Source of the DNA: a virus
Length of the DNA stretch: 64,000 bases
Reading direction: 5' to 3' (one strand)
Virus record (IMG/VR): IMGVR_UViG_3300010885_050982
Span: 39,388 to 103,387 of that record
Notes under the pieces: model-generated
Seen by the model: the letters and a program-made list of their open reading frames with translations, nothing else
Databases searched by the model: none
Told to the model about the DNA's origin: nothing
Shown: positions 1 through 20,939 of the stretch, piece by piece
Layout: every line of letters begins with the position of its first letter
How positions within the stretch are numbered: position 1 is the first letter of the stretch
Position numbers and translations under genes: made by a program

Positions 1-3000
1 CGTCTCGGTATCTGGGGTCGCGGAACGCCATTCGCGGACAAGAATTCGTTCATCAACGACATGTCCGAGGGCGGGGTCGCTGCGATGGAACAAATCGCTC
101 AGTCACTCAAGGCAACCGGAAGCTACTGCTCACGCGCAATCGCGATGGATGACGGTACGCCTAACGGCAAGGTGACATACGATCGATTGACGCATCACCT
201 GAGCGACGATCAGCACGAACAGTACAACGCATTGGCGGATGGCTGGCAGAGTGTTTTGGAAAATATCGACAAAGCATTGGAAATGACGGGCGGCAGCGAT
301 AGCCCACAAGCAAAATCAGCCGCCAGTTCGGCTTTCTGGGGGGCGCAACAGAGATTCTTCAATCAAGTCATGACGTCGATGCAGACACCGGCGGTCATTG
401 AGGCGATGTCGGCTGACATTAAAGAAGGTCGGTCACCGGTCATCCAACTCGTCAACACGATGGAAGCCTCTACGAAACGAGCGTTGGCCGAACGCGGCGA
501 GGACGACGAAGATGCCGATATCGACGTCTCGCCTCGCAAGATCCTTCAGCAGTACCTTGCCACGTGCTTCCCAACGGAGCGGTACGAAAGCTACACCGAC
601 GAGGACGGGAACGAGCGGTCGCGCATGGTCACGCAAGTGAAGCGTGACGAGCACGGAAAGCCCACGACCAATGACAAGGGTGAAGTCTTGATGGAACCGG
701 TCCACGACCCACGGGCGGTCGCGTTGCGTGACAAAATGCTTCAGGACGTTGCCGCTTACCGAATTCCAGATCCACCAATCGATCAGATCATCAACCATTT
801 CGGTCACGAAAAAGTTGCTGAAATAACCGGACGGTCGATTCGCAAGATTAAGATGGAGGAAGATGACGAGCCGAAGTTCTATCCGCGAAACTCAGCGGTC
901 GCGAATCAGGCGGAGTCCAAAGCGTTTCAAGATAACCAGAAAAACATCCTGATTTTTTCGGGGGCTGGGGACACAGGCTTTTCGTACCACGCTGCGCGAA
1001 ACATCAAAAACCAAGGTCGTCGTGTCCATTACATGCTTCAGCCAGGCTGGCGTGCGGACGCTGCCGTGCAAGGATTCGGTCGAACGAACCGAACCAACCA
1101 ATCGTCGGCACCGCATTATCGGCTTGTTGAAATCGACGAGTTGAAGGGTCAAAAGCGTTTCATCTCGACAATCGCTCGACGACTGGATCAACTGGGCGCG
1201 ATCACCAAGGGTCAACGTCAGACCGGCGGTGGCGGACTTTTCGCCGCCAGCGACAACTTGGAAAGCACCGAAGCGAAAGCCGCGCTGGAACAATTCTTCC
1301 ACAACCTCAAGGCCGGTGCGATTGAAGGGTTGGATCACACTGACGTCATGCGTCAGTTGGGCCTTGCAAAAAAAGAAGAGTCCAACCGAAAACAGGGCAA
1401 GGATACTCCTCCTCCAGAAATGGGGCAGTTCTTGAATCGCATGCTGTCCATGCGCGTCGGGATGCAGGGGAAAGTGTTCGAAGCGTACGAAAAGCAGCTT
1501 CAGCAAGTTGTCGCCAAGGCAATCGAAGACGGCACGCTCGACTCAGGGGTCGAGAATTACCCAGCAAGCCAGATCAACCGAAAACAAGACTCGGTCGTTT
1601 TCAGGGAGCCGAAGAGCGGCGCGGAAGCTCGGCACATCATCGCGAAGTGCAAAACCAAGTCCGACAAAATGCCGTTCAAGGAAATCGAATCCAAATCAAA
1701 ACAGCCGGAGAAGTTTGTCCGAAACAAGCAATCTGGTCACGTCTACGCTGCTTACAAGGGCGTCAACGAAACCGACCCAAAAACCGGCGAAGTCAAAGAG
1801 ACGTACGTTTTGGTTGGTGCATCTGGAAATCGTCGATCGGGAGTAGAGAAAGCTGACTTAGAAGGCGATTGGACAGCACGTCGATACAAGGACTGGAAAC
1901 AGCCGAAGTTCGACAAGCTCGACAAAGACGAAGCGGAGCGACTTTGGAAAGATCAGTACGACAAGATTCCAGACTTCAGCGAATCGGATCAGCATTTTCT
2001 GACAGGTGCGCTGCTGCCGATCTGGGACCGAATCCCAGGGAATAAGCCGAAGATCTATCGCATGCGTCTCGAAGACGGTCAAACGATCGTCGGTCGGCAC
2101 ATTCCAGCAAAGCACGTCCCAGAAATGCTCCAGCGACTTGGGGCACATGTGGAAGCCGAATCTCACACGGCAGCGGGAACACATTCCGCACTCACTGGAG
2201 GCCGACATCGAGCCGTGCTGGCAAACGGATGGAAACTCAAGCCGGTCATGGTGCAGGGTGAGCGGCGAATTGAGTTGGTTGGACCATCCTCAATGTCCGA
2301 GGTGCGCCAGATCGAAGCAGACGGAGTCAAGAAGGAACTCAAGGGTGGGTACGATCCGCACTATTACGTCCCGGTCGGTGAGGATGGCGTGAAAGTTCTG
2401 GAGAGACTGACGAAATCACGTCCGATTACGGAAGTGGCTGAAATCGAGAAGAGCAAGTATTCGCGACCGGCAACCACAGAAGGACGAATCCAGGCGGCAC
2501 GGGCAACTGTGATGCACGCCGTCGAGTTTGTCGCGATGCCTCGACGAGAGTTTTTCCAACAAGCGGCGGTGCCGAAATCCCGGTTCGAGATGGCGAAAGA
2601 GCGTTACGCCCGCCACAAGCCCGCGTCAGGGCAAATGTCGATGGAAAGCCACTGGATCACTCTCCACGGGGGCAGCGAAGGCGGCGGAACTCACGTTGAG
2701 GTCGACGGGAAAGGGAATATCACGAAAGGTCCGGCTGGATTGGCAGAGAAGGGGATTAAAAATCTCTCTGATTTCAAAAAAACCGAAGATAAAGAACCTG
2801 AATACCCAGCGAGAGACGATGGCCGACACATTAAAGAAGTGTGGCAAATGACAAAAGCGGAGCACGCCAAGATTTATGGAGGGAAACATGGAAATCATCG
2901 ACTTGGAAGCGAAGTGGGCACGCATCTTTCCGGAGACACAACACTGAAGCCGAATCAAGTAGATTTTGATTTTGCTGGGTCTTCACTTGGGATATCTGCA

Positions 3001-4890
3001 TCCGAAGCAAAGCGGGCATGGAACCAGTTTACTTGGGGCACGGAACTTCCGCCTGTAGACGTCGACAAGCGACACAAGCACCTTGTCGAGCAAGCCGTTC
3101 TTGCCGGAAAGAATGTTCCGGACCACATCTTGGCTGATTACCCGGATATTGCGAAACTGCGGAATACGAATCGGAAGCCTGTCACCGATGGAGATCTGGA
3201 TCGCCTAGCCGACAACGGGATCGACATCGTCAAACATCCAAAAGGCGGCTGGACCGCCGAGAGGGATAGTCATGACGAAAAGGGACCGTACCGGGAGCAC
3301 ATTGGCCAGTCGTTCGCGTCTCAGCAGGAAGCTGCGGACGCGGCGTTGAACTGGGCACAGCCGGAGAAAATCAAAGATCCATCACAAACAAAGCCTCACG
3401 AACTGTCCATGGGCGAATCCACAGAGAAAAGCTTGGGTGAGTTGAGAACAGAATTCAAATCGAAAATGGACGAGGTCGACAAGCGACTAGAGGCCACGAC
3501 TCGACAACTCCAAGGAGAAAAGTCGCGGGCCGGACGAAACATATCGAAAATCGAAGATATCGAAAATCGATATAAGCGAGCCAAACAGGAAGCAAGCGAC
3601 GAAAAACAGAAAATCGTCAGTCATTATAGTCCGCGAATGATTAACCACCCGGAACACAAAGCCCAGCAGGCAAAAGACGCGGAATCTTGGCGGACAAAGA
3701 AAGAGCAAGAAAACAAGAAGATTGCCGACAACGACAAGCTCATGAGAAAAGAGCAGTGGGACAAAATACAATCGTCCGGCGGGGTTGATGCCGCCAAGAA
3801 AACGGTTCAAGAGAATCTCAGGCAGTTGCAAATCAAGCACAATCGAACGAAAGAATCAAACCGCTGGAAACTGCCAAAACCAGAACGATTCAATCGCGAA
3901 TTGGAGTATCTTGAAGATTTACAGAAAGAGTTTGGTGGCGAAAGCGGGATCGACAGGGCACAGGAGGCAAAGTCGTCACCAGCGGTCAACCGAGAAGAAC
4001 TCGAAGGGCAAATGTTGATGTACAAGGACGCTATCGCAATCAAAAAAGCGAAAGGCGAACCTATTCCGCAAAAGTGGCTGGACGGAATGGCTGATATTTC
4101 CGACAAGCGTGGCGGGCGAACTCCAGAAACAGGTCTGGTCGCATCAAATCATGTTTTCGGTCACCCAGAAACAACGCAAGACCCGAAGTATGCAAACCTG
4201 ATTCCGATCCGGGTCGGCGACATTGAAAGCGTGAACCGAAAGACCGAGCAAGCACAGGAAATCTACAATCAGTTGGCGTCGAAGATATCAACTGCACAGT
4301 GGCAGGAGAAAAACAAGAAGACTAACCCAAAGGCCGCTAAAGCAGCGTCAGCGTATCTTCAGAGTCATGAAGGCCAAAGTGATATCCAGAATCGTGACAT
4401 GCTTCGCAACGAGACGATGCCGGAGCTTCAGCGGTTGCGTCGTGAATTAGCTGGGCAGAAACAATCGCCCCCCGAGCCAATCAATGGCGAGTATCACTCA
4501 AAAGACGTAGCCGACAAGCCGATCTCAAATGAAGTCTACGCCCAAGAAATGCGGAAGATGATCGAACTGGCAAATCAGCCGAAAGGCACGCTTTCCGGTA
4601 GAGCGAAAGAAGATTTCGACAGTTACAAGCCGATCATGGAGCGGGACGTAAATAAAGAAGTTACCCCGCGCAAACGGGCGAACGCGGCGATGTACGCGAT
4701 GCATGACTTACACCCAGACGCACAGCAGGCATTGTCAGATCACCTGAAAACGATCGCACCGGAAGCACATCAGCACTTCCATGCGAACAAGCCGATTCAT
4801 TTTGCGAATGTGAAAGCAGGAGACGACTCTCCAGAAAAGACGAAATACTCCAGAATCGCCAATGCTCGCATCCGATTTTGCGGTCGATGA
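1..4890 (+). CDS. 5'-partial polyvalent protein: Strawberry-notch-family SF2 helicase C-terminal half plus low-complexity/charged C-terminal domains
   Basis: Frame is open from base 1 (RLGIWGRGTPF...GGVAAME); FWGAQQRFF, AEITGR, GFSYHA, GWRADAAVQGFGRTNRTNQ, KRFISTIARRLDQLGA and FLNRML are Strawberry-notch motifs; later VWQMT...HLVEQAVLAGKNVP..ILADYP block. Confidence 0.88.
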   Translation, partial: RLGIWGRGTPFADKNSFINDMSEGGVAAMEQIAQSLKATGSYCSRAIAMDDGTPNGKVTYDRLTHHLSDDQHEQYNALADGWQSVLENIDKALEMTGGSDSPQAKSAASSAFWGAQQRFFNQVMTSMQTPAVIEAMSADIKEGRSPVIQLVNTMEASTKRALAERGEDDEDADIDVSPRKILQQYLATCFPTERYESYTDEDGNERSRMVTQVKRDEHGKPTTNDKGEVLMEPVHDPRAVALRDKMLQDVAAYRIPDPPIDQIINHFGHEKVAEITGRSIRKIKMEEDDEPKFYPRNSAVANQAESKAFQDNQKNILIFSGAGDTGFSYHAARNIKNQGRRVHYMLQPGWRADAAVQGFGRTNRTNQSSAPHYRLVEIDELKGQKRFISTIARRLDQLGAITKGQRQTGGGGLFAASDNLESTEAKAALEQFFHNLKAGAIEGLDHTDVMRQLGLAKKEESNRKQGKDTPPPEMGQFLNRMLSMRVGMQGKVFEAYEKQLQQVVAKAIEDGTLDSGVENYPASQINRKQDSVVFREPKSGAEARHIIAKCKTKSDKMPFKEIESKSKQPEKFVRNKQSGHVYAAYKGVNETDPKTGEVKETYVLVGASGNRRSGVEKADLEGDWTARRYKDWKQPKFDKLDKDEAERLWKDQYDKIPDFSESDQHFLTGALLPIWDRIPGNKPKIYRMRLEDGQTIVGRHIPAKHVPEMLQRLGAHVEAESHTAAGTHSALTGGRHRAVLANGWKLKPVMVQGERRIELVGPSSMSEVRQIEADGVKKELKGGYDPHYYVPVGEDGVKVLERLTKSRPITEVAEIEKSKYSRPATTEGRIQAARATVMHAVEFVAMPRREFFQQAAVPKSRFEMAKERYARHKPASGQMSMESHWITLHGGSEGGGTHVEVDGKGNITKGPAGLAEKGIKNLSDFKKTEDKEPEYPARDDGRHIKEVWQMTKAEHAKIYGGKHGNHRLGSEVGTHLSGDTTLKPNQVDFDFAGSSLGISASEAKRAWNQFTWGTELPPVDVDKRHKHLVEQAVLAGKNVPDHILADYPDIAKLRNTNRKPVTDGDLDRLADNGIDIVKHPKGGWTAERDSHDEKGPYREHIGQSFASQQEAADAALNWAQPEKIKDPSQTKPHELSMGESTEKSLGELRTEFKSKMDEVDKRLEATTRQLQGEKSRAGRNISKIEDIENRYKRAKQEASDEKQKIVSHYSPRMINHPEHKAQQAKDAESWRTKKEQENKKIADNDKLMRKEQWDKIQSSGGVDAAKKTVQENLRQLQIKHNRTKESNRWKLPKPERFNRELEYLEDLQKEFGGESGIDRAQEAKSSPAVNREELEGQMLMYKDAIAIKKAKGEPIPQKWLDGMADISDKRGGRTPETGLVASNHVFGHPETTQDPKYANLIPIRVGDIESVNRKTEQAQEIYNQLASKISTAQWQEKNKKTNPKAAKAASAYLQSHEGQSDIQNRDMLRNETMPELQRLRRELAGQKQSPPEPINGEYHSKDVADKPISNEVYAQEMRKMIELANQPKGTLSGRAKEDFDSYKPIMERDVNKEVTPRKRANAAMYAMHDLHPDAQQALSDHLKTIAPEAHQHFHANKPIHFANVKAGDDSPEKTKYSRIANARIRFCGR

Positions 4891-4950: not shown

Positions 4951-7728
4951 ATGACGATCGATACAGAAATCGCAAAACGTATTCAGGCGGCAAGGGTTGC
5001 GTACGATCATCAGCGTGAACTGTATGCGGGTCCGACACGGTGGATTACGGTCGGCGCGGTCGATCATCACGGCGGCACTCACGTCGAGATTGACGGACAA
5101 GGCAACATTTCCAAAGGTCCTTCCGGGATGAAGGGCAGTAATATTGCAAACCTGAAGAAGCCAGCATCAGTGGGGATTCCCGGACATCGACCGCCATCGA
5201 ATGTGGGGATTCCTGGACATCGACCGCCATCGAATGTGGGGATTCCCGGACATCGACCGCCATCGAATGTGGGGATTCCTGGACATCGACCGCCATCGAA
5301 TGTTGGAATGCCTGGCATGCGACCACCCAACCAAGACGGAATTCCAGGTCATAGGCCACCGTCCGGGCAGTCGATGCCGGGGAATCGAAATGCGGTTCCA
5401 CCACAGCAGGCGCAGCCAGCCGGGCAGAATCCGCAAGAGAAGCCAATTCCAGGCGAACCCGCCCCTTTGAAGCAAGCGGTGGAGCAACTTGGAGCGCAGC
5501 AGCAACCGACGACGCCACCGCCACCGGGACGACTGTATTCGCCGAACCCAGCGTTTGGAGAAGCGGCAAGAGTCGGGGTTCCCGGCAATAAAACTCCTCC
5601 ATTGCCGCCGCTTGAATACTTCAGACTGCCAAACCTGAACCCAGAAGAACGTGCAGTCGAAAAGGGTTTTATGGATCAGTACCAGTCCGATCCTGACGGC
5701 CAGGCCGATGCGATGATCCAAGCGATGGCAAAAGGCATGGGCGACGGTCCAAACATTTTCGCAACCGACGAGGCGAAAGGCTTGGTCAAGGAATGGAAGG
5801 GGACAAAAGTCCCTGAAATGGGGCCGGATGGAAAGCAAGCTGTCGACAAGGATGGGAATCCGAAATGGGATCTCAGTCCTGAAACAAAAGAGTATCGATC
5901 AAAGTACAACACGGCGCTTCACCAGACAGCGAACGCATTGGCGAAGCGAGCGTTCTTGAAATACCTCGATACCGTTGTTGCAAACGGTCCACCGGAAAAG
6001 AGAAACATTCTCGTTACTGCTGGTGGAGTTGCCTGTCACGGTAGAGGCACTCCTGTCGTGATGTTCGACGGAACCCTCAAGAATGTCGAAGATGTCGTTG
6101 AGGGCGATAAACTAATGGGTCCAGATTCAACTGAACGAACTGTAATGCTGACGCATTCAGGTCGCGACATGCTTTACAACGTAACTCCGCATCGTGGCGA
6201 CTCGTTTACGGCGAATGGTTCTCACGTTTTGGCGATTCACGCTCAGTTGCGACGAAAAGTGAATGGCGTCGAGATTCCGTATTCTGGCAAGATCACGATT
6301 ACTGTTGACGACTATCTTGCGAAAAGCGGTCGATTCAAGGCGAATTGCTATTTGTATCGAAGAGGGATTGAGTTTGCCGAGTCTCGTGTTCCGCTTGATC
6401 CATACTTCTTGGGATTGTGGCTTGGGGATGGAACGCATTGCCTGCCAGCGGTCACGTCTGCCGATCCAGAAATCGCGGAGTTCATGCAGCAGTTCACTCG
6501 CAAGCAACCACGAATGAAGCTGATGGTTCACGCAAAGCCGGACAATGCCGCATCCGTGTATCAAATGTCGTATCTGGATTCGACGCCACAGAAAGGCGAT
6601 GGATACCGAAAAGGGTGTCGCCCAAATCCAATCACGGCAAGACTGAAGGAGGCGGGTGTTTTAAGAAACAAACACATTCCTCAACAGTATTTAGCCAACT
6701 CCAGCTCCGTGAGGCTTCAATTGCTTGCTGGGTTGCTAGATTCAGATGGGTCGTACAATGCTGACCGGAAATCGTTTGAGATTACCACCAAAATCGAGCG
6801 TATGGCGAAAGAGATTCAGTTCCTTGCCAGATCAATTGGATTCCAAGCGTCGATCAATGAGAAGATCGTGAGAAATAATTGGACCGGGAAGTCAGGCGTC
6901 TATTTCCGTCTTCACATCGGCGGAAACGATCTTGAATTGATTCCGACAAAGATCCTGAGAAAGCAGGCGGAGTCAAGACCAGCAGAGCGAACAGACGGAA
7001 GGGTGTCTCGCGACGTTCGGCACTCAAGTTTCAGGGTCGATCCAATCGGAGAAGATGAGTTCTTCGGTTTCACGCTGAATAAAGATCATCTGTACTTGCT
7101 TGGCGACTTTACGGTTACCCACAATTCAGGCAAGGGGTTCGCGCTTGAGAATGTTGACCAGACGAAGAGCTTGCAAAAAATGGCTGGTGCTGTGTGGGAC
7201 ACTGCCGGAGAGCAGAACAGCACCGAACTCGGATGGGTCGCCGAAGAGTGCAAGAAACGTGGACTGAAGATGCACGCCGTATTCGTTCACTCCAAGCCAA
7301 GCGAGACATGGGAAAACCCGGAGCGAGGTGTGATCGAGCGAGCCAATAAAAAGGGCCGCATGGTCGACGCCAGAGCGTTCGCGGACTCTTACACGTATGG
7401 CGCGCAGAACTTCCACAAGTTTTCCCAGAAGTACGCGAACGACCCTAACGTTCACGTTACCGTTCTCGACAACACTCGGCCACCGGTGCCAGATCTGGAC
7501 GAAAACGGAGTTCAGAAGATCGACAAAAAGGGAAAGCCAGCCAAAAAGCCGGACGTCGTCGCGATCCCGTCTGTCCCGCAAGAAATGTTGTCGATGGACC
7601 CGGATGCATTGTACGCTCATTGCATCGAAGCACTGGCAAAATTCCCAGCCTCAGATGCCGTCAAGCAGGGCGGTTCCGCAGGTACAAGAATTTGGCCGGA
7701 AACGCTGACGGGCGGTCGAAAACAGTGA
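4951..7728 (+). CDS. Polyvalent protein with Pro-rich linker and zeta-toxin-like P-loop kinase, intein-containing
   Basis: After intein removal the Walker A reads ILVTAGGVA-SGKG; downstream VWDTAGE and AVFVH...IERANKKGRMV resemble zeta-toxin/AAA_33 kinases. Confidence 0.72.
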   Translation: MTIDTEIAKRIQAARVAYDHQRELYAGPTRWITVGAVDHHGGTHVEIDGQGNISKGPSGMKGSNIANLKKPASVGIPGHRPPSNVGIPGHRPPSNVGIPGHRPPSNVGIPGHRPPSNVGMPGMRPPNQDGIPGHRPPSGQSMPGNRNAVPPQQAQPAGQNPQEKPIPGEPAPLKQAVEQLGAQQQPTTPPPPGRLYSPNPAFGEAARVGVPGNKTPPLPPLEYFRLPNLNPEERAVEKGFMDQYQSDPDGQADAMIQAMAKGMGDGPNIFATDEAKGLVKEWKGTKVPEMGPDGKQAVDKDGNPKWDLSPETKEYRSKYNTALHQTANALAKRAFLKYLDTVVANGPPEKRNILVTAGGVACHGRGTPVVMFDGTLKNVEDVVEGDKLMGPDSTERTVMLTHSGRDMLYNVTPHRGDSFTANGSHVLAIHAQLRRKVNGVEIPYSGKITITVDDYLAKSGRFKANCYLYRRGIEFAESRVPLDPYFLGLWLGDGTHCLPAVTSADPEIAEFMQQFTRKQPRMKLMVHAKPDNAASVYQMSYLDSTPQKGDGYRKGCRPNPITARLKEAGVLRNKHIPQQYLANSSSVRLQLLAGLLDSDGSYNADRKSFEITTKIERMAKEIQFLARSIGFQASINEKIVRNNWTGKSGVYFRLHIGGNDLELIPTKILRKQAESRPAERTDGRVSRDVRHSSFRVDPIGEDEFFGFTLNKDHLYLLGDFTVTHNSGKGFALENVDQTKSLQKMAGAVWDTAGEQNSTELGWVAEECKKRGLKMHAVFVHSKPSETWENPERGVIERANKKGRMVDARAFADSYTYGAQNFHKFSQKYANDPNVHVTVLDNTRPPVPDLDENGVQKIDKKGKPAKKPDVVAIPSVPQEMLSMDPDALYAHCIEALAKFPASDAVKQGGSAGTRIWPETLTGGRKQ
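5170..5301 (+). repeat. 33-bp coding tandem repeat x4 (VGIPGHRPPSN), followed by two degenerate units
   Basis: gtggggattcc[c/t]ggacatcgaccgccatcgaat at 5170, 5203, 5236 and 5269. Confidence 0.97.
6034..7125 (+). mobile_element. Intein with LAGLIDADG homing endonuclease (364 aa)
   Basis: Starts CHGRGTPVVMFDG, block B FTANGSHVL, LAGLIDADG motifs PYFLGLWLGDG and LLAGLLDSDG, ends FTVTHN followed by Ser +1. Confidence 0.95.
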
Positions 7729-7793
7729 TCCAACCGTTCTTCAGAGACGTTTAGTCTTACGTGAGAACGAAACCCATAAGAAAAGAGGAAGTT

Positions 7794-8033
7794 ATGTCAG
7801 TTGGAACCATGCAAGGGCCTCCAGCGTACAAGTTCCCGGAAGCGCAAGCCCAAGCTGAAGCGATTATGTCAAATTTGTCCCAGAGTGACGACGAAATGGA
7901 TGCCGTTGAAGAGCGAAAGCACGCTCGGGACGTTGCTCGGGCAGAGGGTGGCGACAGCGGCCCCCAGATTGACCCTGAAAAGTCCAATCGAATCGACAAA
8001 GCGAAAACATCGTTCGACGTACGAGGTTTCTGA
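7794..8033 (+). CDS. Small hypothetical protein downstream of the zeta-like kinase
   Basis: GAGG RBS before ATG 7794; stop overlaps next start (TGATG). Confidence 0.6.
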   Translation: MSVGTMQGPPAYKFPEAQAQAEAIMSNLSQSDDEMDAVEERKHARDVARAEGGDSGPQIDPEKSNRIDKAKTSFDVRGF

Positions 8034-9325
8034 TGCTCAATATTCGCGACAGGATTGCGTCTGCCATCGAGCGATACCAGAAAGAACACTGGATCACGCT
8101 TCGGGGGACTCACGTACTGATCGACGAAGATGGGGAGATCCTAAAGGGTCCTCCGGCGCTCAAGGGTATTCAACTCGGGAAACCGGTCCCGAAGCGAAAG
8201 GCAGACGAATCAGAAAAGCAGTGGCTGAAACGTATTGCTCCTGATTTGCCAGCCCCAAGGCGACTTCCTGAAAATCATAGCGATTATTTCAACATGGATC
8301 GGGCGGACGCGACGGTATCGATCGGTCGACTGAAAAGTACGAAGACCGACGCCGAAAACGAAAAAGGCGGCGGGAACGCTCCAAAGTTCATGGATCTGTC
8401 GCGACGTGGATTGACCGGGAAACGTGATCCGATCACGGTTCGACCGAACGACAGCGGCGGCTATGACGTTGTCGACGGGAATGGAACATTCACTGGTGCG
8501 AAACATTACGGTTGGAAAACACTTCCAGTTCAGATCGAGAAGAAGCTTCCCGAAGAAAATCGGAAGCCATTCTTTACCGATGAGGAAATGAGTTTACCGA
8601 AAGAAAGACTTCAGCCGGTCGCGCAAGATGCTGGTTATGACGTGTTGGCTGCAAAAGCGAAAGTTGCCGATCATCAGTTGCGAACACTATTGGACTTCGG
8701 AAAGGGCCTTGGCGCGCAGCTTGGGTATGAGACCATCCTTCCGGGGGTCATGAAGTTGGATGAAATTGTAGAGCGGTGCAAGAAGCCAGGAGGTATCGTC
8801 TGGATTGGCGGCTTGAAGCCGGAAGCATCAGCGAAACGAAAAGTCCGGGACGATTACAATGGTCACTGGAATCGGCTTTTGGATATTGCGAGGGCAACTG
8901 TCGTCGTTGACGCGATTGACGATGTGCATAAGGTCATCGACAAAGCGAGGGCGATGGGGGCAAAATTGGCTCGTCGGCCAAAAGACCACATAACTAATCC
9001 AATACCCGATACGCATTACCGAGATATCAACATGAATCTGGAGATGCCAAACGGGATGATCGTGGAAATGCAAATCAATCTGAAACCGATGATCATCGCG
9101 AAGAAAACTGGGCACTTGGACTATGAAATCATTCGGGAAATATCAGGAAAACTTCACGCAGAAGGGGACCGAGAACCGACAGCGAGCGAGAAGTCGCGTC
9201 TTCAGCAGGCTCTCAACGCAAACGTGAAGCTCTACGATGCCGCTTGGGAAAAATGCTTGGGATCGAAAGAGAAATACTCTCGACGTTGCGAACTGGCTGA
9301 GTCGAGATTTCGGAAGATGTTTTGA
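8033..9325 (+). CDS. ParB/Srx-like domain fused to RelA/SpoT-type nucleotidyltransferase (small alarmone synthetase-like)
   Basis: DPITVRP...YDVVDGNGT...GWKTLPV (ParB-like); LKPEASAKRK, LLDIARAT, YRDIN and VEMQI match synthetase Syn1-4 spacing. Confidence 0.8.
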   Translation: MLNIRDRIASAIERYQKEHWITLRGTHVLIDEDGEILKGPPALKGIQLGKPVPKRKADESEKQWLKRIAPDLPAPRRLPENHSDYFNMDRADATVSIGRLKSTKTDAENEKGGGNAPKFMDLSRRGLTGKRDPITVRPNDSGGYDVVDGNGTFTGAKHYGWKTLPVQIEKKLPEENRKPFFTDEEMSLPKERLQPVAQDAGYDVLAAKAKVADHQLRTLLDFGKGLGAQLGYETILPGVMKLDEIVERCKKPGGIVWIGGLKPEASAKRKVRDDYNGHWNRLLDIARATVVVDAIDDVHKVIDKARAMGAKLARRPKDHITNPIPDTHYRDINMNLEMPNGMIVEMQINLKPMIIAKKTGHLDYEIIREISGKLHAEGDREPTASEKSRLQQALNANVKLYDAAWEKCLGSKEKYSRRCELAESRFRKMF

Positions 9326-9333
9326 GGTGGATC

Positions 9334-9967: not shown

Positions 9968-9971
9968 GATT

Positions 9972-11980: not shown

Positions 11981-12192
11981 TTTTCGTCTCCTCAATTTGC
12001 TGCTTTTCTCATCCCCCACGTTATTGCAAACGCACGTCAGCACGGAAGGATCACGAACAGGGACAAGAATTTTTGAGAATTCATGAAATTGTTTTTTCAA
12101 TTTTCTTTCCAATTTCCGTGATCCTTTCCGGCCTCGGTGCGTTTGCCCTTATGTGGGGACAATAAAAACGAAAACGAGAAGCGGAGAGAATC

Positions 12193-12480
12193 ATGAAACG
12201 TAAAGAGATGTCGCTTCGAGACTATCACAACTCTCTGAAAAACGGAGCGGAGTACTTGTGGGTGTGCGGCATCGGTTATCCAACAGGATGCGATTTCCGT
12301 AACAACCTTGAAGAGTCGGAGTCGATGGAATACTGCGACCTGAACGAGATTATCGATCAGCTTGGGTTGTGGGACCTGAATGGGATTGTTGACCAAAATA
12401 ACCGCTGGGAGTGGGACGGGGCCGGAAACCCAGTTGACCATCAAGGAAATTCGATACTCAACATCAAGGCTATGCCTTAG
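12193..12480 (+). CDS. Hypothetical protein
   Basis: GGAG RBS; divergent from the minus-strand cluster. Confidence 0.55.
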   Translation: MKRKEMSLRDYHNSLKNGAEYLWVCGIGYPTGCDFRNNLEESESMEYCDLNEIIDQLGLWDLNGIVDQNNRWEWDGAGNPVDHQGNSILNIKAMP

Positions 12481-12491
12481 GGAGCGGGATC

Positions 12492-13211: not shown

Positions 13212-14822
13212 ATGCTTTCCAATGCCGAACGAATCGAACAGGCAAAAGATCGATACAAAAAGCACATTGAAAGCGGTCCAGGACAGAGGGATTTGTTCAC
13301 GGGCGAGACTCGGAAGTCGGCGAAAACGCAAGGGAAATTCCACTGGATCACGCTAAAGTCTCACGATGGAGAACCGACAACTCACGTCGAGATCAGCGAC
13401 GATGGCAAGGTTCGCAAGGGTCCTGCGGGACTGACCGGGAAATCGCTTTTCGATCACGAATCGAAATCGCCGGATACTGAGAAACCGAAAATCGTCAAAG
13501 TTCCTGCTCGGCCTGCTGTTCATCATGGTACGGCACGACGGGAACCGGCGGCACCGGCGTCTCATTTACGGCATTTGCCAGACGGTCGAGTTGTTGGACC
13601 GACCGTTATGTCGATCGACGATTTGCACGTCGACCCCGAGCGATTCCAGTACAAGGTCAGTGGGATTAACAAGGAAACCGGGACCAATTCCGAGATTCGC
13701 GACAACACGATCTACAACCCCGAGTTGGGCGGACAGTTGCTGGTCTGGAAAGATCCTGCTGACGGCAAGACGTACGTCGTCAACGGTCACCACCGCGCAG
13801 AGTTGGCGAAAAAATCTCCACGGTCGAGCGAAATCGGAGAGTTCAACGGGTCGCATCCCGTCTACTACATCAACGCCAGGGACCACGTGGAGGCCCGCGC
13901 GCACGGAGCGTTGGCCAATATTGCCGAGGGACGCGGGACAGCGACTGACGCGGCGAAATTCATGCGAGACATGGGCGTCGGTCCCGAACATTTCAAAAAG
14001 CACGGAATCAGCCACAAGGGCGCTCTGGCTGCGGCGGCGATGGAGTTGAAAAAGCTTTCACCGATGATCTTCCAGAAGTTGACGAATGGGATGATTTCGG
14101 AAGGCCGGGCGGCGATGATCGGAAAGCACCTTCCGAACGAAGACGCCCAGGATCAGCTCTACCGATGGATCGAGAAACACGAAAAGCAACCCGGCGACTA
14201 TTCCGACCGGAAAGTTGCCGAAATGGCAAAGTCGACGGCGGCAATGAAACCGAAGCAAGCCGGTATGGGTGGCGGACTGCTCGGGGACTGGTTCGATGAG
14301 TTTCCGATCGAACAAAGAGCCGACATCGCCGACCATGTTGCTCGAACCCTGTCAGGCGAAACGAAATCGCTTCGAGACGCATCGTCAGAACGTCGCAAGG
14401 GAGTGATCGAAGCCGAAGGGGACAATAAGATTGACGCGGTCACCAATCGTGCCAGGGCGATGAAATCGGCGGCGGCACTGGAAGAATTCGATCACCGCGT
14501 GAACGCTCAAGGACATCCGATCGCACAGCTTTTAGACCAATATGCAGAAAGGCTCGCAAGTGAACCAAAAAAACGAACAGCCATCCTCAAAGAAGCCCTC
14601 GCAGAAGTCAGGAAACTCGCTGAAGCTGGATCGGGAGGGAAAACCGATGACGGAGCAGCAGATCGAACACATGTTCGGCCACTTCAAGGAGATGGTCCGG
14701 GACGGCGCGATTCAGAACAGCCAGCTTCAAATGGAGTGAGTCGGTTTTCCAGGCTGGAGGCGGCAGAGGCTAATTATCGGTATTATTGCGAGAGAGTCGC
14801 CGGTAAGAATTCTCAGTCTTAG
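13212..14822 (+). CDS. Polyvalent protein with ParB-like domain
   Basis: VDPERFQYK...LLVWKDPADGKTYVVNGHHRAELA...LANIAEG; N-terminal shared linker motifs support ATG 13212. Confidence 0.75.
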   Translation: MLSNAERIEQAKDRYKKHIESGPGQRDLFTGETRKSAKTQGKFHWITLKSHDGEPTTHVEISDDGKVRKGPAGLTGKSLFDHESKSPDTEKPKIVKVPARPAVHHGTARREPAAPASHLRHLPDGRVVGPTVMSIDDLHVDPERFQYKVSGINKETGTNSEIRDNTIYNPELGGQLLVWKDPADGKTYVVNGHHRAELAKKSPRSSEIGEFNGSHPVYYINARDHVEARAHGALANIAEGRGTATDAAKFMRDMGVGPEHFKKHGISHKGALAAAAMELKKLSPMIFQKLTNGMISEGRAAMIGKHLPNEDAQDQLYRWIEKHEKQPGDYSDRKVAEMAKSTAAMKPKQAGMGGGLLGDWFDEFPIEQRADIADHVARTLSGETKSLRDASSERRKGVIEAEGDNKIDAVTNRARAMKSAAALEEFDHRVNAQGHPIAQLLDQYAERLASEPKKRTAILKEALAEVRKLAEAGSGGKTDDGAADRTHVRPLQGDGPGRRDSEQPASNGVSRFSRLEAAEANYRYYCERVAGKNSQS

Positions 14823-15032: not shown

Positions 15033-15033
15033 G

Positions 15034-15345
15034 ATGCGATTGAGCGAGTTGGAGCCAAGGTGGATTCACCCCAGCATGTTCGTTTTCAAGTGTCCCTGTT
15101 GCCGTAATGTCTGGTTGACATGCAAGAGCAGTCCGATGACCCGGCAGGAAACATGGAATATCTTGAGAAGTGGACTCGGCGAGGACTGGAATCAAATTGT
15201 CGTTCCCCCGAGCCCGGAAACGCAATGGTCAATTTCCAATAACGTCCCAAGAGGATTCGCGGATAACATTTCGGTTACGCCCTCGATCGACGCCAGCGCA
15301 TCCGGTCATTGGCATGGGTTCATCACCAATGGGGAAATCAAGTGA
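15034..15345 (+). CDS. DUF6527-like hypothetical protein
   Basis: FKCPCC...SVTPSID...HWHGFITNG. Confidence 0.6.
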   Translation: MRLSELEPRWIHPSMFVFKCPCCRNVWLTCKSSPMTRQETWNILRSGLGEDWNQIVVPPSPETQWSISNNVPRGFADNISVTPSIDASASGHWHGFITNGEIK

Positions 15346-16460
15346 TGTCTATTGCTGAGCGAATCCAGGTGGCCAAAACACGATTCTTGTCGTGGCCAGA
15401 CCAGTACGCAAAGTTCAAAGTTGCGCATGGCCAAAAATCGTTGTGGGGCGAAGAGGATGAGGTAAAGCATCCCCGTAACGAAATCGGCGAATTCGCAAAA
15501 AAAGACTCTCCAGCAGTGATCCGAGCGGATAAGGGTAACGTTTCTCCTATTGGTGACGAAAACAAACCTAACGGAGAAAAGAAAATGGAAGCGAAAGAAT
15601 TCACTGGAAATGGCGGCGCGAAAGCAGTTGTAAAACCAGCAAGCGACGGCAACGGACATTCAGCCGTTATTGAATGGAAAGCTGGAAACAGCCTTCATCG
15701 CGACATCGCTGGAAAGGATTTCAAGGGGCGGCTTGTTCGGTTCGGTGCCGATGGCGTGCAGCACGTGATGACCGGGCATGGTGAAGTCATGCTGGATATC
15801 GGTATCGTTAAGATCGAAGGTAAATCGCGGGCGATGAAGGTTCGCGTTTCCGACAAGCCGGAGCTGCAAGCTGCGGCGGAAGTATTGCTGCCGGAATACA
15901 AAGCTGGGTGGGAAAAACACCTAAAGACACAAGCGGATCTTGAGCAGCAAGAAAAACAACGCCGCGAAGCTACGAGAAGCGATTCGCACAAGATCGCTCC
16001 GATTTACCATGACGGCGAATACCTGAGCGGATATCAAGTATACGGCGATGAAGCCGAAATACTGAAGGATCTTGGGTTGGCAAAGCATGTCAGCGGGTGG
16101 GGTTACGAAGTCTCGCAAAAGGTCATCAAAGATCTTGGAAAAGAGTTCACCGTTGAGCAAGCCAAGGCGTACGCCAAGCCTGCAATGGACGCCAAAGCCG
16201 AATCTGACGCCACGCGAGAAGAGGCAAACAAAGCTAAACGTGAAGTCATCGAAAATAAGAAGTCGGAAATGGTTGACGCCGGAAAGTCGTTCGCGACTCC
16301 AAAGCAGATCGCGGTGATCGAACGAGCAAGACGAGACTGGTTCGATATTTTCGACGGCGCGGGCGGCTATGGAATGAACGGGCCAACCGACGAACAGTTG
16401 GAGTTGATGACCAAAGACGAAGCGTCGAGCCTGATTTCAGAAATCTTGGCTTCACGATAA
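15345..16460 (+). CDS. Polyvalent-family protein of unknown function
   Basis: MSIAERIQVAK...DQYAK...GQKSLW...KHPRNEIGEF leader; C-terminal ATPKQI...MTKDEASSLI motif. Confidence 0.75.
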   Translation: MSIAERIQVAKTRFLSWPDQYAKFKVAHGQKSLWGEEDEVKHPRNEIGEFAKKDSPAVIRADKGNVSPIGDENKPNGEKKMEAKEFTGNGGAKAVVKPASDGNGHSAVIEWKAGNSLHRDIAGKDFKGRLVRFGADGVQHVMTGHGEVMLDIGIVKIEGKSRAMKVRVSDKPELQAAAEVLLPEYKAGWEKHLKTQADLEQQEKQRREATRSDSHKIAPIYHDGEYLSGYQVYGDEAEILKDLGLAKHVSGWGYEVSQKVIKDLGKEFTVEQAKAYAKPAMDAKAESDATREEANKAKREVIENKKSEMVDAGKSFATPKQIAVIERARRDWFDIFDGAGGYGMNGPTDEQLELMTKDEASSLISEILASR

Positions 16461-16475
16461 TCGAGGACGCCTTGC

Positions 16476-19400
16476 ATGGAAACGACCGAACGAATCGCCA
16501 GAGCGATGGAACGATACTCGAAGGAATTCGAGTCGAAGCATCCCCGCGATCAGGATGGGATGTTTGCTGAAAAAATAGAGTCGACAGCAGCGATGGCAGA
16601 CGGGGCATTCAATCCATCCTGGAGCGTCCGTAAGCATGGTCGCATGGACTGCTTGATGCCAGTCAACCACGACAGCAAGCCGTTTGTTGCAGAGCTGCAA
16701 AGAATCAGCAGTTCGCTATATGATCTCGATAAAGACGATCCTGAGCAAAAGTTCGCAATCGACATCGAGAATCGCATAGGACAGGCTGTCCACGAATTCA
16801 CATTCAGGAACGTTCACACGGAATACGGAAACGAAAAGTCGGCATTTGGCGTCACTGGGACTGGATCTGCCACGGAGGTCGTCAAGAATGCTGCGGCATG
16901 CTTAATCAAGGCGATCAAGTTGTATTCGCACGCTCTTCCTGTAATCTACTTCACTGCCGCAGAGAGAAGCCGAATTGGCTTGTATTCGCTGCTTTCTAAA
17001 CGGGCTGAAAAAGTGACTGGATATATTGGATACCGCGTTGATCTTGGAAATTCCGATCATGCGCTGTTTGCTCTTGTCGACCCAAGCAAGGCGACGGAGT
17101 TCGAGTCTGTAATCAGACGCCAAAATGCTAAAGTTGAGCGATACCAGAAATGGGACGAGTCGAAGCACGTTCGCGACGAAGTCGGAAAGTTCGCAAATAA
17201 ATCGTCATCAGGTTCGATCAGCGAATCCGACAAAGTTGCGATGCCGTTCGATCCATTCCCGAAAACATTCAAGGAAATGAAGAACCGGGATTATGTCGAC
17301 GTATGGCATGGAACAACATTACAGCGGCTTGAGAAGATTATCGAAAGCGGTAAGACGAAAACTGGCGAGCGAGGTCAGTTTTTGGTGTCCCCAAGATTCC
17401 GCCATGCAAGCCAATATCCAGAGTTCCCTGGAGAAGACGAAGATCCAATCGTCGTCTCGATTCGAGTTCCAGTGAGCAATCTCCTTCCAGACGAAAATGA
17501 TCAACCGGGAATTAGCCTTGAGCAATCGCTTTTTGGCAATCACTTCGGGCTTGCTGCTGATGTCGATGGAGGAATAGACATCTCTCAGATTCGCGGAGTC
17601 TACGGTGAGTCTGTCGATGATGCATGGACAGTTGCTGAAACTGGCAGGCATGTTGCCGAATCAATTCTCAAAAACAAGTCGAATCGGCTCGATCCTGTCG
17701 AGTCTGCTCGCATTGATTACGCCGAAAACGGCACGAAATCAAAAGCGTTTAAGGCATGGTTCGGCGACTCGAAGGTTGTCGATTCCGATGGCGAGCCACA
17801 AGAAACGCACGGGACCGCGAAACCGGTCTACCACGGGACCCCGCATGACTTCGAAGCTTTCGACAGCAGTACGCAAGACTGGTCGTGCGAGGTCGGGAAA
17901 GGGTTCTACTTCACGGACAACGAAGAACTGGCGAGATCAGAATATTCGAAGGGCGGAAAAGTCATCGCCGCGTACCTGAAGATTGACAAGCCTTTGGATT
18001 TGGACAAACCAATCTCCGACTCTGATCGTGACGCGATCATGGAAGCGGGCAAGAAAAAATTCAATCATGTCGACTGGAACGCTCCCAGCGGACTGACCGG
18101 GGACGGCATTCACAGGTGGATCGACAATCAGCTCGGAACAGCATTCGTCAACGACGTCATTGAGGCTGCTGGTTTCGATGGGATCACTCACATTGCGAGA
18201 AATAAACTGGGGGGTCGCGATAAAAAGAAGATGGATGACTTCGGTCGCGTCTGGATTGCGTTTGCCCCCTCGCAAGTGAAAAGTACTGACAATCGAGGGA
18301 CGTTTGACCCGAAAGACAATCGCATGGCATATTCCAAGAGAATTGCGAATGCTATCGAGATGTATTCGTTCGACCCAAGTCAACCACGGGACAAGTCTGG
18401 CCAATGGACAGCCTACGACATCGGCCACAAATCGGGGATGAACGGGTTTGTCAGCAAAAGAGAAAGGCAAAAAGCCCTTCGCGAAAACGGGCACGATATT
18501 GCTGATTCAAAAGTGATGCAAGAGTTCAATCGTGGGCACAGCGATGCTATAAGCCAAAAGCAGAACGAAAGGGAGCAGGCGAAGAATCTGCGACTCGCCC
18601 CATTCATAGAGGCTGCGAGGAAAAACTGGAAGCCTGGAGATTTCGACATTGACGATAGCGATACGCAAGCATGGGAGGCGAAATTAAAATCGATCGCTGA
18701 GGAAGATGCAGACAATGCAGACAATGAAATGGATGCTGAGAACGAAAAACAGCAACAAATCAATCGAGACATGAAAAAACACCTTGTTTCCGAAGAAGTT
18801 ACATCAAGAGCCAGAAAGATTGTTGGCGATTGGGCGAAAGATCATGGATGGGAAGTATCGAACGAACATTCGTCTCGAACGAATTCGCATTACTGCACCC
18901 TTGCGAAAAGAAACGGAGACGAGGAGGAATCGTTTACTGTTCGCGTTTCGGATCATCACGCACCGCATGGAAGCGGCTTCAATGAGGCTAAGCAGGAGTA
19001 CCATGAGCCATCTGATGTGAATATTGTTCCTGAACTACCACCTTATGATGACGAATCAGACTGGAAAGAGTTTGACGTTAAGTCTGGCCCGGATTGGTCA
19101 AGATTCACCGTTGACACCACTGAACTTGATAAGATGGCGAGAGGCGATGCCACAGACAGGCAGTCCTATTCCAAGAGAATCCAATCCGTCCTTGAACGGT
19201 ACTCGAAAAAACCAGGCGAGAAGAAAGAGCACAAATTCAGTTCGACTCAAATCGACGTTCCACCAGAGATCGCAGAGAAAATCAGGAAACTTGCCGAGCG
19301 AATCCCGGACAATCAGCTTGCCGACGATGGTCGCGAAACAGACTTCCACATTACGGCGCTTTTCGGCCTGCACACGAACGATCCTGACGACGTGAAGGAA

Positions 19401-20939
19401 GTTCTGTACGGCCAGCGTCCAGTAACGATCGTCTTTGGGAAGACGTCAATCTTCTCGAATGCCGATGCGGACGTCCTGAAACTCGAGATACTGGGCGACG
19501 GTATTCGGGAATTGAACAAGCGGCTGAAGAAAGGATGCGAACACACAGAAACTCACCCGACGTACCAGCCGCATTGTACGGTCGCCTATCTCAAGCCGGG
19601 GAAAGGCCACTTCTGGGTCGGCGGCGAAATGTTCGATCAATTGAAGTTCGATGCTGATGAAGTACAGTTCTCGAATAAGCAGCGGGAAAAGACGCCGATC
19701 TATTTGGTTTCAGAATCGAAGGAAATCGACGGTCGGATAATTCGAGCGAAAGAGTTGTACGCCAAGCATAAACCAGCAGCAGGGCAATCTTCGTTCAACT
19801 GGGATGAATCAAGAGTCACAAGGGATGATGAAGGGAAATTTGAGCACTGGAACACCGGCGAAGTGTCGGCATCGGCGCGTCCGCTTATCGTCGATTTTGA
19901 ACGACAAAATGATCGAGTGGAATTCAAACCACCGTCGCAATGGACAGATTCCGATAAGAGAAAAGCGAAACGACTGATCGCAGGTGCAAAAGCGGCAATG
20001 GAAGATCCACATTCAACAGGTCCATCGCTGTCGCATCCGATCCATACCAAGGAGTCTGCCGAAAAAGCAATGTGGAAAGCGTTGGAGGTCAGGAATTTTG
20101 GGACAGCCATGAGCAATCGATACGACGGCGATGATGGCGGACTGGAGAGCCTTGGACGCAAAATGCTTCAAGCTGCCAAGGACGAGATGGAATATGGTTA
20201 TGAGAAACGTCAGTTGGCGACACTGAAGAAGCCAAGGCAGAAAACAGGATTTGACCGGGAACTGGAAATCATGTTTGCAGCAGACAACTACTCAAGAGCC
20301 AAGCAGATCGTCGAAATCTACGGGAAGAAACCCGCAGGCGGACAACGGTCAATGTTTGACGAAGAGGATCATCCACGGGACCCGGCAAGCGGTGAGTTCG
20401 TCGAAAAGGATGGCGGCGCGGCCGCGAACGCATGGAAACCAGAGAATCACGTCAAAATCGCAGCCGATTCGATCGAGCGACTGCGCGGCGGAGACGTGTA
20501 TCGGCTTCTCGATTCGTCCCCGCCGGGAAACATGAATCAGATGGCTGAGTACATCCGTAAAAGCAGGCCGGACCTCGCCGGGCATGTTCAGGAAGCGACG
20601 GACGACATCAACGAAGATCGCGGAACGAAACCGCCAGAGCCGAAGCCAATGGAGCGTGTCGGCGTGCCAGGCATGCAAAAGAACCTGTTCGACGAAGAGC
20701 CGAGCGGACAAAAGCAGTTGTTCGACTACATCGCACCCAGCAAGAAAGACGTCAAGAAAGCGAAACAGGAAGACTTGCTTGCTGGCGTCAACTCTCGACT
20801 GAAGGAGCAACTTAAAAACAAGGAAACTCTGTCACCGGCGGACCTGCTCACGAACGTAACTCATGAGCCTCTCGCCGGGCAGCGTGATTTATTCACAAAG
20901 CGATTCGATATCGCTAAAGAACGGTTCAATCGGAAGTAA
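16476..20939 (+). CDS. Polyvalent protein: two ADP-ribosyltransferase-like domains, 2H phosphoesterase and other modules
   Basis: VWHGTT (ART-like); FKAWFGDSKVVD...VYHGT...GFYFTD...GFDGI...QVKS..NRGTFD (ART-PolyVal-like); HITALFG and PHCTVAY (two HxT motifs). Confidence 0.85.
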   Translation: METTERIARAMERYSKEFESKHPRDQDGMFAEKIESTAAMADGAFNPSWSVRKHGRMDCLMPVNHDSKPFVAELQRISSSLYDLDKDDPEQKFAIDIENRIGQAVHEFTFRNVHTEYGNEKSAFGVTGTGSATEVVKNAAACLIKAIKLYSHALPVIYFTAAERSRIGLYSLLSKRAEKVTGYIGYRVDLGNSDHALFALVDPSKATEFESVIRRQNAKVERYQKWDESKHVRDEVGKFANKSSSGSISESDKVAMPFDPFPKTFKEMKNRDYVDVWHGTTLQRLEKIIESGKTKTGERGQFLVSPRFRHASQYPEFPGEDEDPIVVSIRVPVSNLLPDENDQPGISLEQSLFGNHFGLAADVDGGIDISQIRGVYGESVDDAWTVAETGRHVAESILKNKSNRLDPVESARIDYAENGTKSKAFKAWFGDSKVVDSDGEPQETHGTAKPVYHGTPHDFEAFDSSTQDWSCEVGKGFYFTDNEELARSEYSKGGKVIAAYLKIDKPLDLDKPISDSDRDAIMEAGKKKFNHVDWNAPSGLTGDGIHRWIDNQLGTAFVNDVIEAAGFDGITHIARNKLGGRDKKKMDDFGRVWIAFAPSQVKSTDNRGTFDPKDNRMAYSKRIANAIEMYSFDPSQPRDKSGQWTAYDIGHKSGMNGFVSKRERQKALRENGHDIADSKVMQEFNRGHSDAISQKQNEREQAKNLRLAPFIEAARKNWKPGDFDIDDSDTQAWEAKLKSIAEEDADNADNEMDAENEKQQQINRDMKKHLVSEEVTSRARKIVGDWAKDHGWEVSNEHSSRTNSHYCTLAKRNGDEEESFTVRVSDHHAPHGSGFNEAKQEYHEPSDVNIVPELPPYDDESDWKEFDVKSGPDWSRFTVDTTELDKMARGDATDRQSYSKRIQSVLERYSKKPGEKKEHKFSSTQIDVPPEIAEKIRKLAERIPDNQLADDGRETDFHITALFGLHTNDPDDVKEVLYGQRPVTIVFGKTSIFSNADADVLKLEILGDGIRELNKRLKKGCEHTETHPTYQPHCTVAYLKPGKGHFWVGGEMFDQLKFDADEVQFSNKQREKTPIYLVSESKEIDGRIIRAKELYAKHKPAAGQSSFNWDESRVTRDDEGKFEHWNTGEVSASARPLIVDFERQNDRVEFKPPSQWTDSDKRKAKRLIAGAKAAMEDPHSTGPSLSHPIHTKESAEKAMWKALEVRNFGTAMSNRYDGDDGGLESLGRKMLQAAKDEMEYGYEKRQLATLKKPRQKTGFDRELEIMFAADNYSRAKQIVEIYGKKPAGGQRSMFDEEDHPRDPASGEFVEKDGGAAANAWKPENHVKIAADSIERLRGGDVYRLLDSSPPGNMNQMAEYIRKSRPDLAGHVQEATDDINEDRGTKPPEPKPMERVGVPGMQKNLFDEEPSGQKQLFDYIAPSKKDVKKAKQEDLLAGVNSRLKEQLKNKETLSPADLLTNVTHEPLAGQRDLFTKRFDIAKERFNRK

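Follow-up and report, generated by a model that had tools for sequence, protein, structure and literature searches.

The subject of this analysis is a 64,000-nucleotide stretch of DNA (the window), which forms the right-hand 64 kb of the 103,387-bp virus record IMGVR_UViG_3300010885_050982 from an uncultured phage, and in particular a block of seven predicted head-cargo genes that begins directly after the portal gene and runs to position 20939. The proteins encoded by this block share a short tyrosine-containing signal at their ends and at the borders between their enzyme domains, and a signal of the same class is conserved in the product of a downstream gene (32668..34521, plus strand) that is predicted to be a prohead protease fused to a scaffold. 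From sequence and predicted structure, on which the whole analysis is based, we favour the reading that these junctions are cleavage sites of the capsid protease within cargo polyproteins, probably cut as Y|S, and would give this a probability of about 0.6. Cutting by the prohead protease appears to be the most economical explanation of the pattern, with Tyr/Ser as the likely bond.

The mechanism would run as follows. The seven genes after the portal would give rise to head-cargo (polyvalent) proteins made as precursors, in which all protein ends and enzyme-domain borders carry a cassette that combines an amphipathic helix of about ten residues, R-I-x-x-A-x-E-R, with [R/N/K]-Y-S-[K/R]. These precursors would go into the prohead, where a gp21/assemblin-like protease would cleave scaffold and cargo at the junction sites, probably between Tyr and Ser, stripping the short leaders and tails and releasing single enzyme domains. 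The released fragments would begin with a small beta module, termed WIT, or with a GQxxLF/HPRD tag, and would be ready for exit with the DNA.

The protease-scaffold fusion (617–630 amino acids) has 63 homologues and consists of a folded N-terminal domain followed by disordered and helical scaffold parts, the C-terminal part being long, acidic, proline-rich and helical. An earlier interpretation made from the letters of the window (the sequence-only reading) had drawn attention to tyrosine motifs in this protein; these are present, and an alignment of 21 homologues (mean identity about 40%) shows nine Tyr columns whose conservation ranges from at least 90% to complete, mostly as [R/N/K]-Y-S-[K/R], within a scaffold region that is otherwise poorly conserved. 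The corresponding codons lie at 33376 (Y250, in N-L-Y), 33412 (Y262, followed by S263, in V-M-R-Y-S-M), 33493 (Y289, K-Y-G-A), 33982 (Y452), 34015 (Y463), 34069 (Y481, N-Y-S-K), 34159 (Y511, R-Y-S-K), 34348 (Y574, E-R-Y-S-R-G-G) and 34405 (Y593, R-Y-S-R-x-A-A). In the AlphaFold model the conserved Tyr residues sit in low-confidence linkers or at helix starts, with two sites just behind the protease domain, two ahead of the last helices and further ones between scaffold helices.

Identification of the folded domain (residues 31–236 of the model) as a protease draws on several kinds of evidence. Alignment of the domain using VIA-align gave T4 gp21 (5jbl_A) at Z 5.4, with 117 residues aligned and a root-mean-square deviation of 4.3, followed by the proteases of varicella-zoster virus (Z 5.0) and human cytomegalovirus (Z 4.3). 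Foldseek returned six herpesvirus proteases for the model, with E about 1, and capsid proteases are the sole non-helical structural matches. His158 and Ser216, candidate catalytic residues, are invariant in the 21 homologues, 58 residues apart and with His before Ser, and profile searches against Pfam, PHROGs and the PDB gave no sequence-level match. The gene stands upstream of the major capsid gene (35089..36186, plus strand; phrog_1005 major head protein, E 1.6e-6), and because of this context it is taken as a head-maturation gene. Fold, residues and gene position together suggest with moderate certainty that 32668–34521 encodes a gp21/assemblin-like prohead protease fused to a scaffold.

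The cargo copies of the signal quoted in the sequence-only reading could all be found in place, as could the internal linkers with two tyrosines and the C-terminal half units that it described, and its expectation of enrichment over the rest of the proteome was borne out. The strict pattern R[IF]..A.[ED].Y[SAQK][KR] has 5 matches, and a looser nine-residue pattern, [RK][IFV]..[AV].[EDTVA].[YF], has 11, all of them in cargo genes between the portal and 20939 with no match among the remaining 25,000 residues encoded by the 103-kb genome; when the cargo proteins were shuffled (2000 trials), the looser pattern occurred 0.37 times on average and at most 3 times. Copies additional to those described earlier were found in the leader of a 2708-residue protein, whose gene starts upstream of the window, and in the helix that ends a 79-residue protein (7794–8033). 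Six cargo proteins have leaders of 14–25 residues ending in ERY-[S/A/Q]-K, the motif class that is also conserved in the scaffold.

The cassette takes three forms. At N-termini, Met and 3–9 further residues are followed by the helix R-I-x-x-A-x-E-R and then Y-[S/A/Q]-K; at internal borders, x-Y-S-[K/R] precedes the helix and a second Y-S-K follows it, placing the two Tyr 10–11 residues apart; at C-termini, K-Y-S-R precedes the helix and Phe replaces the second Tyr. Behind the cassette comes one of two kinds of module, either the WIT beta module or G-Q-x-x-L-F and/or K-H-P-R-D-x-x-G-x-F, and half units also occur at C-termini and behind domains that have no WIT or HPRD module. The junction sites flank Pfam domains and none lies inside one. 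Identical residues of the motif copies use the same codon in just 40% of cases, and selection therefore acts on the peptide and not on a DNA repeat; the same figure rules out a recombination hot-spot. Neither an HExxH zinc-protease motif nor a Pfam peptidase family was found in the seven cargo proteins, so that another protease would be needed and the processing route proposed by Iyer et al. is unavailable in the studied phage.

A link between scaffold and cargo that does not depend on the studied phage itself was provided by a position matrix built from five conserved scaffold sites in 19 other phages, with the studied phage and its 85% relative left out. Scanned over the whole proteome with a cut-off score of 10, the matrix gave 7 matches in the cargo proteins (21% of residues), all of them outside Pfam domains, along with 5 matches in the scaffold and a single one elsewhere; with a cut-off of 8 the counts were 11, 6 and 6, respectively (P about 1e-4 at either score). 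The claim that a Y-[SA] site is common to cargo and protease-scaffold thus has support from scaffold conservation, from the matrix, from its position in flexible segments and from co-variation between lineages.

This co-variation is, as far as sequence comparison goes, the decisive new evidence. The sequence-only reading had proposed looking for a concerted change of the residue in scaffold and cargo between related phages; a match of cargo linker to scaffold motif is seen in three protease-scaffold families, with Y-S, L-S-R and hydrophobic-K-S motifs, respectively. In lineage L007, the polyvalent protein contains [R/K]-[L/M]-S-R eight times, ahead of WIT-like modules, and a 406-residue scaffold-like protein encoded between the polyvalent protein and the capsid gene has six [L/M/F]-S-R motifs, compared with one in 2823 other residues. 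Records G013 and G011 have an HK97-type head (Pfam Phage_capsid; phrog_80 head maturation protease), and the G013 protease-scaffold contains ten hydrophobic-K-S motifs, equivalent to 21 per 1000 residues versus 1.4 in the rest of the proteome; LKS ranks top among tripeptides in an unbiased scan (P 1e-8). The capsid proteins of G013 and G011 have 3 and 4 copies, respectively, all in the N-terminal propeptide-like region and the last just ahead of the mature domain (the removable scaffold domain of HK97 has 103 residues; PMC10275583). In the portal-fused cargo protein of G013 (2235 amino acids), hydrophobic-K-S stands directly before each of three WIT modules and after the 2H domain.

Expressed per 1000 residues, the scaffold of the studied phage has 6.3 [R/K/N/Q/E]-Y-[S/A] motifs and 0 of both [L/M/F]-S-R and hydrophobic-K-S; for the same three classes in the same order the scaffold values are 0, 14.8 and 0 in L007 and 0, 2.1 and 21.1 in G013. 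The cargo values are 2.1, 0.3 and 1.2 in the studied phage, 0.4, 3.3 and 0.4 in L007, and 0.9, 0.4 and 2.7 in G013, so that, with motif class set against lineage, the high values fall on the diagonal of the three-by-three matrix for scaffold and cargo alike. Comparison by hhalign of the studied phage's protease-scaffold family with the L007 and G011 proteins detected no homology, and the lineages are therefore taken as independent. In all three motifs a Ser follows the variable residue, which fits a cut before Ser, as reported for the giant phage SPN3US.

Phages with the same protease family were inspected in their genomic context as IMG/VR records. In a 51%-identical relative (G001; loci L038/L039) the portal ends in I-Q-R-Y-S-R-R, and three small cargo proteins begin with x-R-I-x-x-A-...-Y-S-F and continue with an HPRG or KRD tag. 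Compact relatives with 24–33% identity encode the polyvalent protein directly upstream of the protease and have V-[E/D/N]-R-Y-[A/S] before its WIT and HPRD modules, as well as in the scaffold. Homologues of an alarmone-synthetase-like effector of the studied phage occur in other lineages without the leader, and in two relatives the leader, WIT module and ParB domain are retained but the effector is missing; the code is therefore bound to the lineage, and the effectors are exchangeable. The suggestion of a plug-in cassette is supported by these effector domains that occur elsewhere without the leader and by relatives in which the leader stands on other domain sets. A Y-to-F co-variation within the protease family (L003) was dropped, since the counts do not hold up.

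The part of the sequence-only reading that saw the RIxxA helix as a prohead-docking tag is plausible by analogy with the targeting peptides of T4. In its favour, each cargo protein has a short leader and the 79-residue protein has the helix without a Tyr-Ser site; against it, distant relatives retain only a looser helix before the site, and the helix could be part of the recognition surface of the protease.

A number of observations weigh against cleavage by the capsid protease. Assignment of the protease relies on a modest fold match (the Z scores and Foldseek E value given above) and on gene position. The core of the site is only three to four residues long, and exact tripeptide counting in the studied genome does not pick out RYS; since this form of enrichment fails for the one scaffold, detecting the signal takes either the family alignment or the broader Y-[S/A] class. 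For the scaffold-like protein of L007, searches of the loci and of viral contigs yielded no relatives and there is no fold support, and some polyvalent proteins of relatives carry a zinc-protease domain. Finally, co-variation would be equally expected for a binding signal copied from the scaffold.

Such a signal is the basis of an alternative in which the cargo copies the peptide by which the scaffold binds the shell of the capsid, the portal or further scaffold molecules, co-assembles into the prohead and stays uncut. The presence of a cassette at an end of every cargo protein, and the single helix lacking a Tyr-Ser site, would agree with docking as well, but we regard docking alone as unlikely. 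Nine conserved copies in one scaffold, two of them immediately behind the protease domain and several within disordered linkers, resemble a pattern of release or degradation sites, and in G013 and G011 the capsid motif is confined to the propeptide region, with the last copy just before the mature capsid domain; internal double sites around a ten-residue helix are also hard to account for by binding alone. Considering instead common descent without function, a mobile leader domain (helix, GQxxLF, WIT or HPRD) may have been duplicated among the cargo genes, with its likeness to the scaffold due to chance, as might be argued from the short shared core, from the way the parts of the leader travel together and from the widespread and repeated WIT module (403 clusters, up to 6 copies per protein). 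We give this little credence, because half units are also seen at C-termini and behind domains lacking WIT or HPRD, the matrix derived from foreign scaffolds finds the cargo sites (P about 1e-4), the residues before WIT change by lineage and match the scaffold of that lineage, and codon usage carries no sign of recent DNA copying.

The sites could also be cut by a different agent, i.e. a host protease, another phage protease, or an activity met after injection into the next cell. Iyer et al. proposed processing by embedded zincin-like domains (PMC5512222), and domains of this type occur in polyvalent proteins of L005, L007 and G013; however, the absence of HExxH from the cargo proteins of the studied phage, together with the occurrence of the motif in the protease-scaffold fusion and, in the HK97-type lineage, in the capsid propeptide, both of them classical prohead-protease substrates, leaves this with only a slim chance. 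That the Tyr takes part in some other reaction (phosphorylation, nucleotidylation or cross-linking, for example), and neither in proteolysis nor in docking, is very improbable indeed: Tyr is the most conserved residue of the motif, but Leu or Lys occupies the same place in other lineages, so that a hydroxyl is not required, and no Tyr-modifying enzyme is linked to the module. None of pure binding, descent without function and a different protease explains the pattern in scaffold and capsid propeptide as well as cutting by the prohead protease does.

Three of the cargo proteins combine at least two unrelated effector domains per chain, namely ART-PolyVal with a 2H phosphoesterase, a ParB-like with a RelA/SpoT-like domain, and a methylase region with a helicase. 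The gene for cargo protein 1 (2708 amino acids) begins 3236 nt ahead of the window and is the first gene behind the portal; the protein opens there with a leader and WIT module, and its C-terminal 1629 residues are encoded at 1..4890 (plus strand, as for all seven cargo genes). Its architecture is DarB-like, with an N6-methyltransferase-like region and a Strawberry-notch-type helicase followed by a further C-terminal region (Pfam AAA_34, Helicase_C_4). An internal junction at 2449..2613 is composed of K-Y-S-R (Tyr at 2458–2460), a spacer, the helix RFEMAKERY (2581–2607) and R-Y-A-R, with scores of 11.1 and 8.2 for the scaffold-trained matrix, and a WIT module (HWITL...GTHVxVDxxGxIxKGP) follows at 2650..2733; the C-terminal half unit at 4837..4887, K-Y-S-R and the helix RIANARIRF before the stop codon, scores 16.0.

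Cargo protein 2 (4951..7728; 925 amino acids) has its leader helix at 4978–5004, a second Tyr (ELYAG) and a WIT module at 5038–5121, and near residues 80–125 a proline-rich tandem repeat, N-V-G-I-P-G-H-R-P-P-S, is present in 4–5 copies. An intein (Hint plus LAGLIDADG endonuclease; about residues 362–725) splits a glycine-rich, P-loop-like segment of this protein, an unusual location if the protein is, as presumed, an injected effector. The 79-residue acidic protein (7794..8033) ends in the helix RIDKAKTSF (7989–8015), with no Tyr-Ser site before it. A promoter-like element, TGATCC-N16-CGTTT, and a ribosome-binding site, AAGAGGAAG, lie within 7726–7800 upstream of the ATG at 7794; the open reading frame is therefore a separate gene, and the alternative that it is a frameshifted tail of the 4951 gene is ruled out.

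In cargo protein 3 (8033..9325; 430 amino acids) a ParB-like domain is fused to a domain resembling Tas1 and small alarmone synthetases, as judged by Pfam and Foldseek; in Foldseek the C-terminal domain matches the type VI effector Tas1 best (6ox6_A, E 3.6e-7), with CapRel ranking next. The leader helix of the protein lies at 8051–8077 (Tyr15), its WIT module at 8087–8152 and its C-terminal half unit at 9266–9322 (Tyr415). In its AlphaFold model (mean predicted local distance difference test score, pLDDT, 86.7) residues 4–14 form a helix that is closed by Tyr15, residues 19–38 form a three-stranded sheet, and Tyr415 lies in the sole segment with pLDDT below 50 (412–420), ahead of the terminal helix.

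Cargo protein 4 (13212..14822; 536 amino acids) carries a leader helix at 13230–13256, GQRDLF at 13281–13298 and a WIT module at 13341–13424, together with a ParB-type domain like those attached to portals in other phages (phrog_21 positions 1021–1324, E 1e-64). Cargo protein 5 (15345..16460; 371 amino acids) has a leader helix at 15360–15386, a second Tyr (DQYAK), GQKSLW at 15429–15446, then a KHPRNxxGxF tag and one further domain. The gene starts at 13212, 15345 and 32668 proposed by the sequence-only reading agree with the homologues better than do the longest open reading frames. Cargo polyprotein 6 (16476..20939; 1487 amino acids) has helices at 16491–16517, 18339–18365, 19176–19202, 19734–19760, 20295–20321 and 20901–20927 and an extra ERY site at residue 223. 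Its sites, at residues 14, 223, 619/630, 898/909, 1095 and 1272/1282, flank the ART-PolyVal (444–610) and 2H phosphoesterase (929–1043) domains assigned by Pfam, and the scaffold-trained matrix matches residues 14, 223, 898, 909 and 1272.

The WIT module, which has no Pfam entry, has the consensus H-W-I-T-L...G-T-H-V-x-I-D-x-x-G-x-I-x-K-G-P. Besides the four copies in the window (2650–2733, 5038–5121, 8087–8152 and 13341–13424), two more lie upstream of it. A WIT profile retrieved 403 protein clusters at 50% identity, mostly very large phage proteins with up to 6 copies each, and the residues immediately before the module sort into lineage-specific types, two of which could be matched to their head genes (L007 and G013/G011); the module alignment varied too much to scan the collection with, and a DNA pattern took its place. 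The G-Q-x-x-L-F repeats of the window (13281–13298, 15429–15446, 19782–19799, 20340–20357, 20706–20723 and 20877–20894) resemble the sliding-clamp-binding motif of bacteria, Q-L-x-L-F. The phage encodes its own sliding clamp (28839–29939; phrog_947), and the repeat may be a means of placing injected enzymes on DNA.

The tyrosine motif is not a universal feature of polyvalent proteins, a possibility ruled out by about 115 other ART-PolyVal proteins that have no such motif. Other polyvalent proteins possess a different junction motif, [N]-x-F-C-P-T-G-x-G-G-G-x-D-x-[S/T]-C, with at least 10 copies in P0068, which is found between MuF or portal domains and appended modules in loci L042–L116 (75 IMG/VR stretches).

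Gene order in the studied phage runs from the portal (genome 34357–36099, i.e. window −5030 to −3288; phrog_113, E 9e-19) through the seven plus-strand cargo genes to replication genes, including the sliding clamp, and then to the protease-scaffold and major capsid genes. The portal protein itself ends in copies of the site (Q-R-Y-A-K...H-R-Y-G-G). Other lineages have the portal joined directly to cargo domains (P0067; G013 55977–62684). The plus-strand cargo block is interrupted at 9332–12480, where small minus-strand open reading frames (9972–10235, 10232–10480 and 10477–11088), none with the leader motif, coincide with a reversal of guanine-cytosine (GC) skew; this segment looks like an insertion. 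A near match to the genome was absent from the deposited phage collection, and scanning viral contigs with single proteins turned up no close relatives. Homologues of the head genes are found in metagenomes and in assemblies carrying the labels Schlesneria and Planctomycetes, and for this reason the host is probably a planctomycete.

Processing of packed proteins by prohead proteases is established for T4 and the giant phages, and polyvalent proteins are a described class. In T4 the internal proteins IPI–III and Alt have N-terminal capsid targeting leaders that end in a gp21 consensus site, and gp21 also cuts the scaffold core, in agreement with what PMC10052503 discusses. The present system is similar in its short N-terminal leaders on proteins predicted to be packed in the head and, probably, in the fold class of its protease (Z 5.4 to gp21), but differs in that the signal joins many domains per chain, sits at C-termini and is doubled around a helix at internal borders, with Tyr before the presumed cut where T4 has Glu. 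In the herpesvirus assemblin-scaffold, a release site lies right after the protease domain and a maturation site before the C-terminal capsid-binding tail, and cleavage follows an Ala/Ser rule. The fusion of a predicted protease to scaffold and the layout of sites recur here, with a modest resemblance at the fold level, whereas there is no sequence similarity and the motif is another; to our knowledge, herpesviruses do not load enzyme polyproteins through such sites. Phage P1 packs DarB in its head and injects it, with the helpers DarA and Hdf used for loading. A very large methyltransferase-helicase protein among head-associated genes is found here too and may, by analogy, be packed and injected; P1 differs in loading through DarA and Hdf, and we know of no shared junction code in the Dar system.

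Among the giant phages (SPN3US gp245, phiKZ and 201phi2-1), proteases cut head and ejected proteins, as well as themselves, at A/S/G-X-E sites, with several sites per propeptide; SPN3US gp245 cuts ejection and head proteins at AXE and prefers Ser at P1' (PMC10052503). The use of one short motif for many head and ejected proteins, and the preference for Ser at P1' in SPN3US, parallel what is seen here, but nearly all SPN3US cuts remove N-terminal propeptides, whereas the sites here divide multi-enzyme chains, and both the motif and the sequence of the protease family differ. For polyvalent proteins, Iyer et al. predicted injection as well as processing by the embedded zinc proteases; their account does not use the word 'linker' and describes assemblin-like peptidases only as rare C-terminal domains (PMC5512222). 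The studied phage agrees with that class in having unrelated effectors (ART-PolyVal, ParB-type, 2H, helicase/methylase) in one polypeptide beside virion genes, and differs in lacking the zincin-like hub domain, which is frequent though not obligatory, and in sharing a junction code with the capsid protease-scaffold instead. Our literature search found no publication on junction motifs shared with the scaffold; the Tyr-Ser junction signal, the double-site helix cassette and the three-lineage co-variation test are added here.

One may ask by what route the huge multi-enzyme polyvalent proteins enter the head and if they work intact or as fragments; self-cleavage by zinc proteases is what has been proposed in print, and a junction code that agrees with the sites of the capsid protease and shifts by lineage offers a concrete and testable mechanism. 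It is tempting to extend this to tailed phages in general, as a rule that polyvalent cargo proteins are made as polyproteins with junctions bearing the cleavage motif that belongs to the phage's own capsid-maturation protease, a tentative generalisation to which we would give somewhat less than even odds. If true, the specificity of a prohead protease for which none is known could be deduced from genome sequence by pairing cargo linkers with scaffold and capsid propeptides, and a Tyr/Ser specificity would be new for this protease class. The leader helix and site would likewise constitute a portable tag for loading any protein into the capsid and releasing it there. Biochemical proof in one expressible system would extend to a large class of phages with differing motifs, and the functional units of counter-defence arsenals would be single domains with a small N-terminal module.

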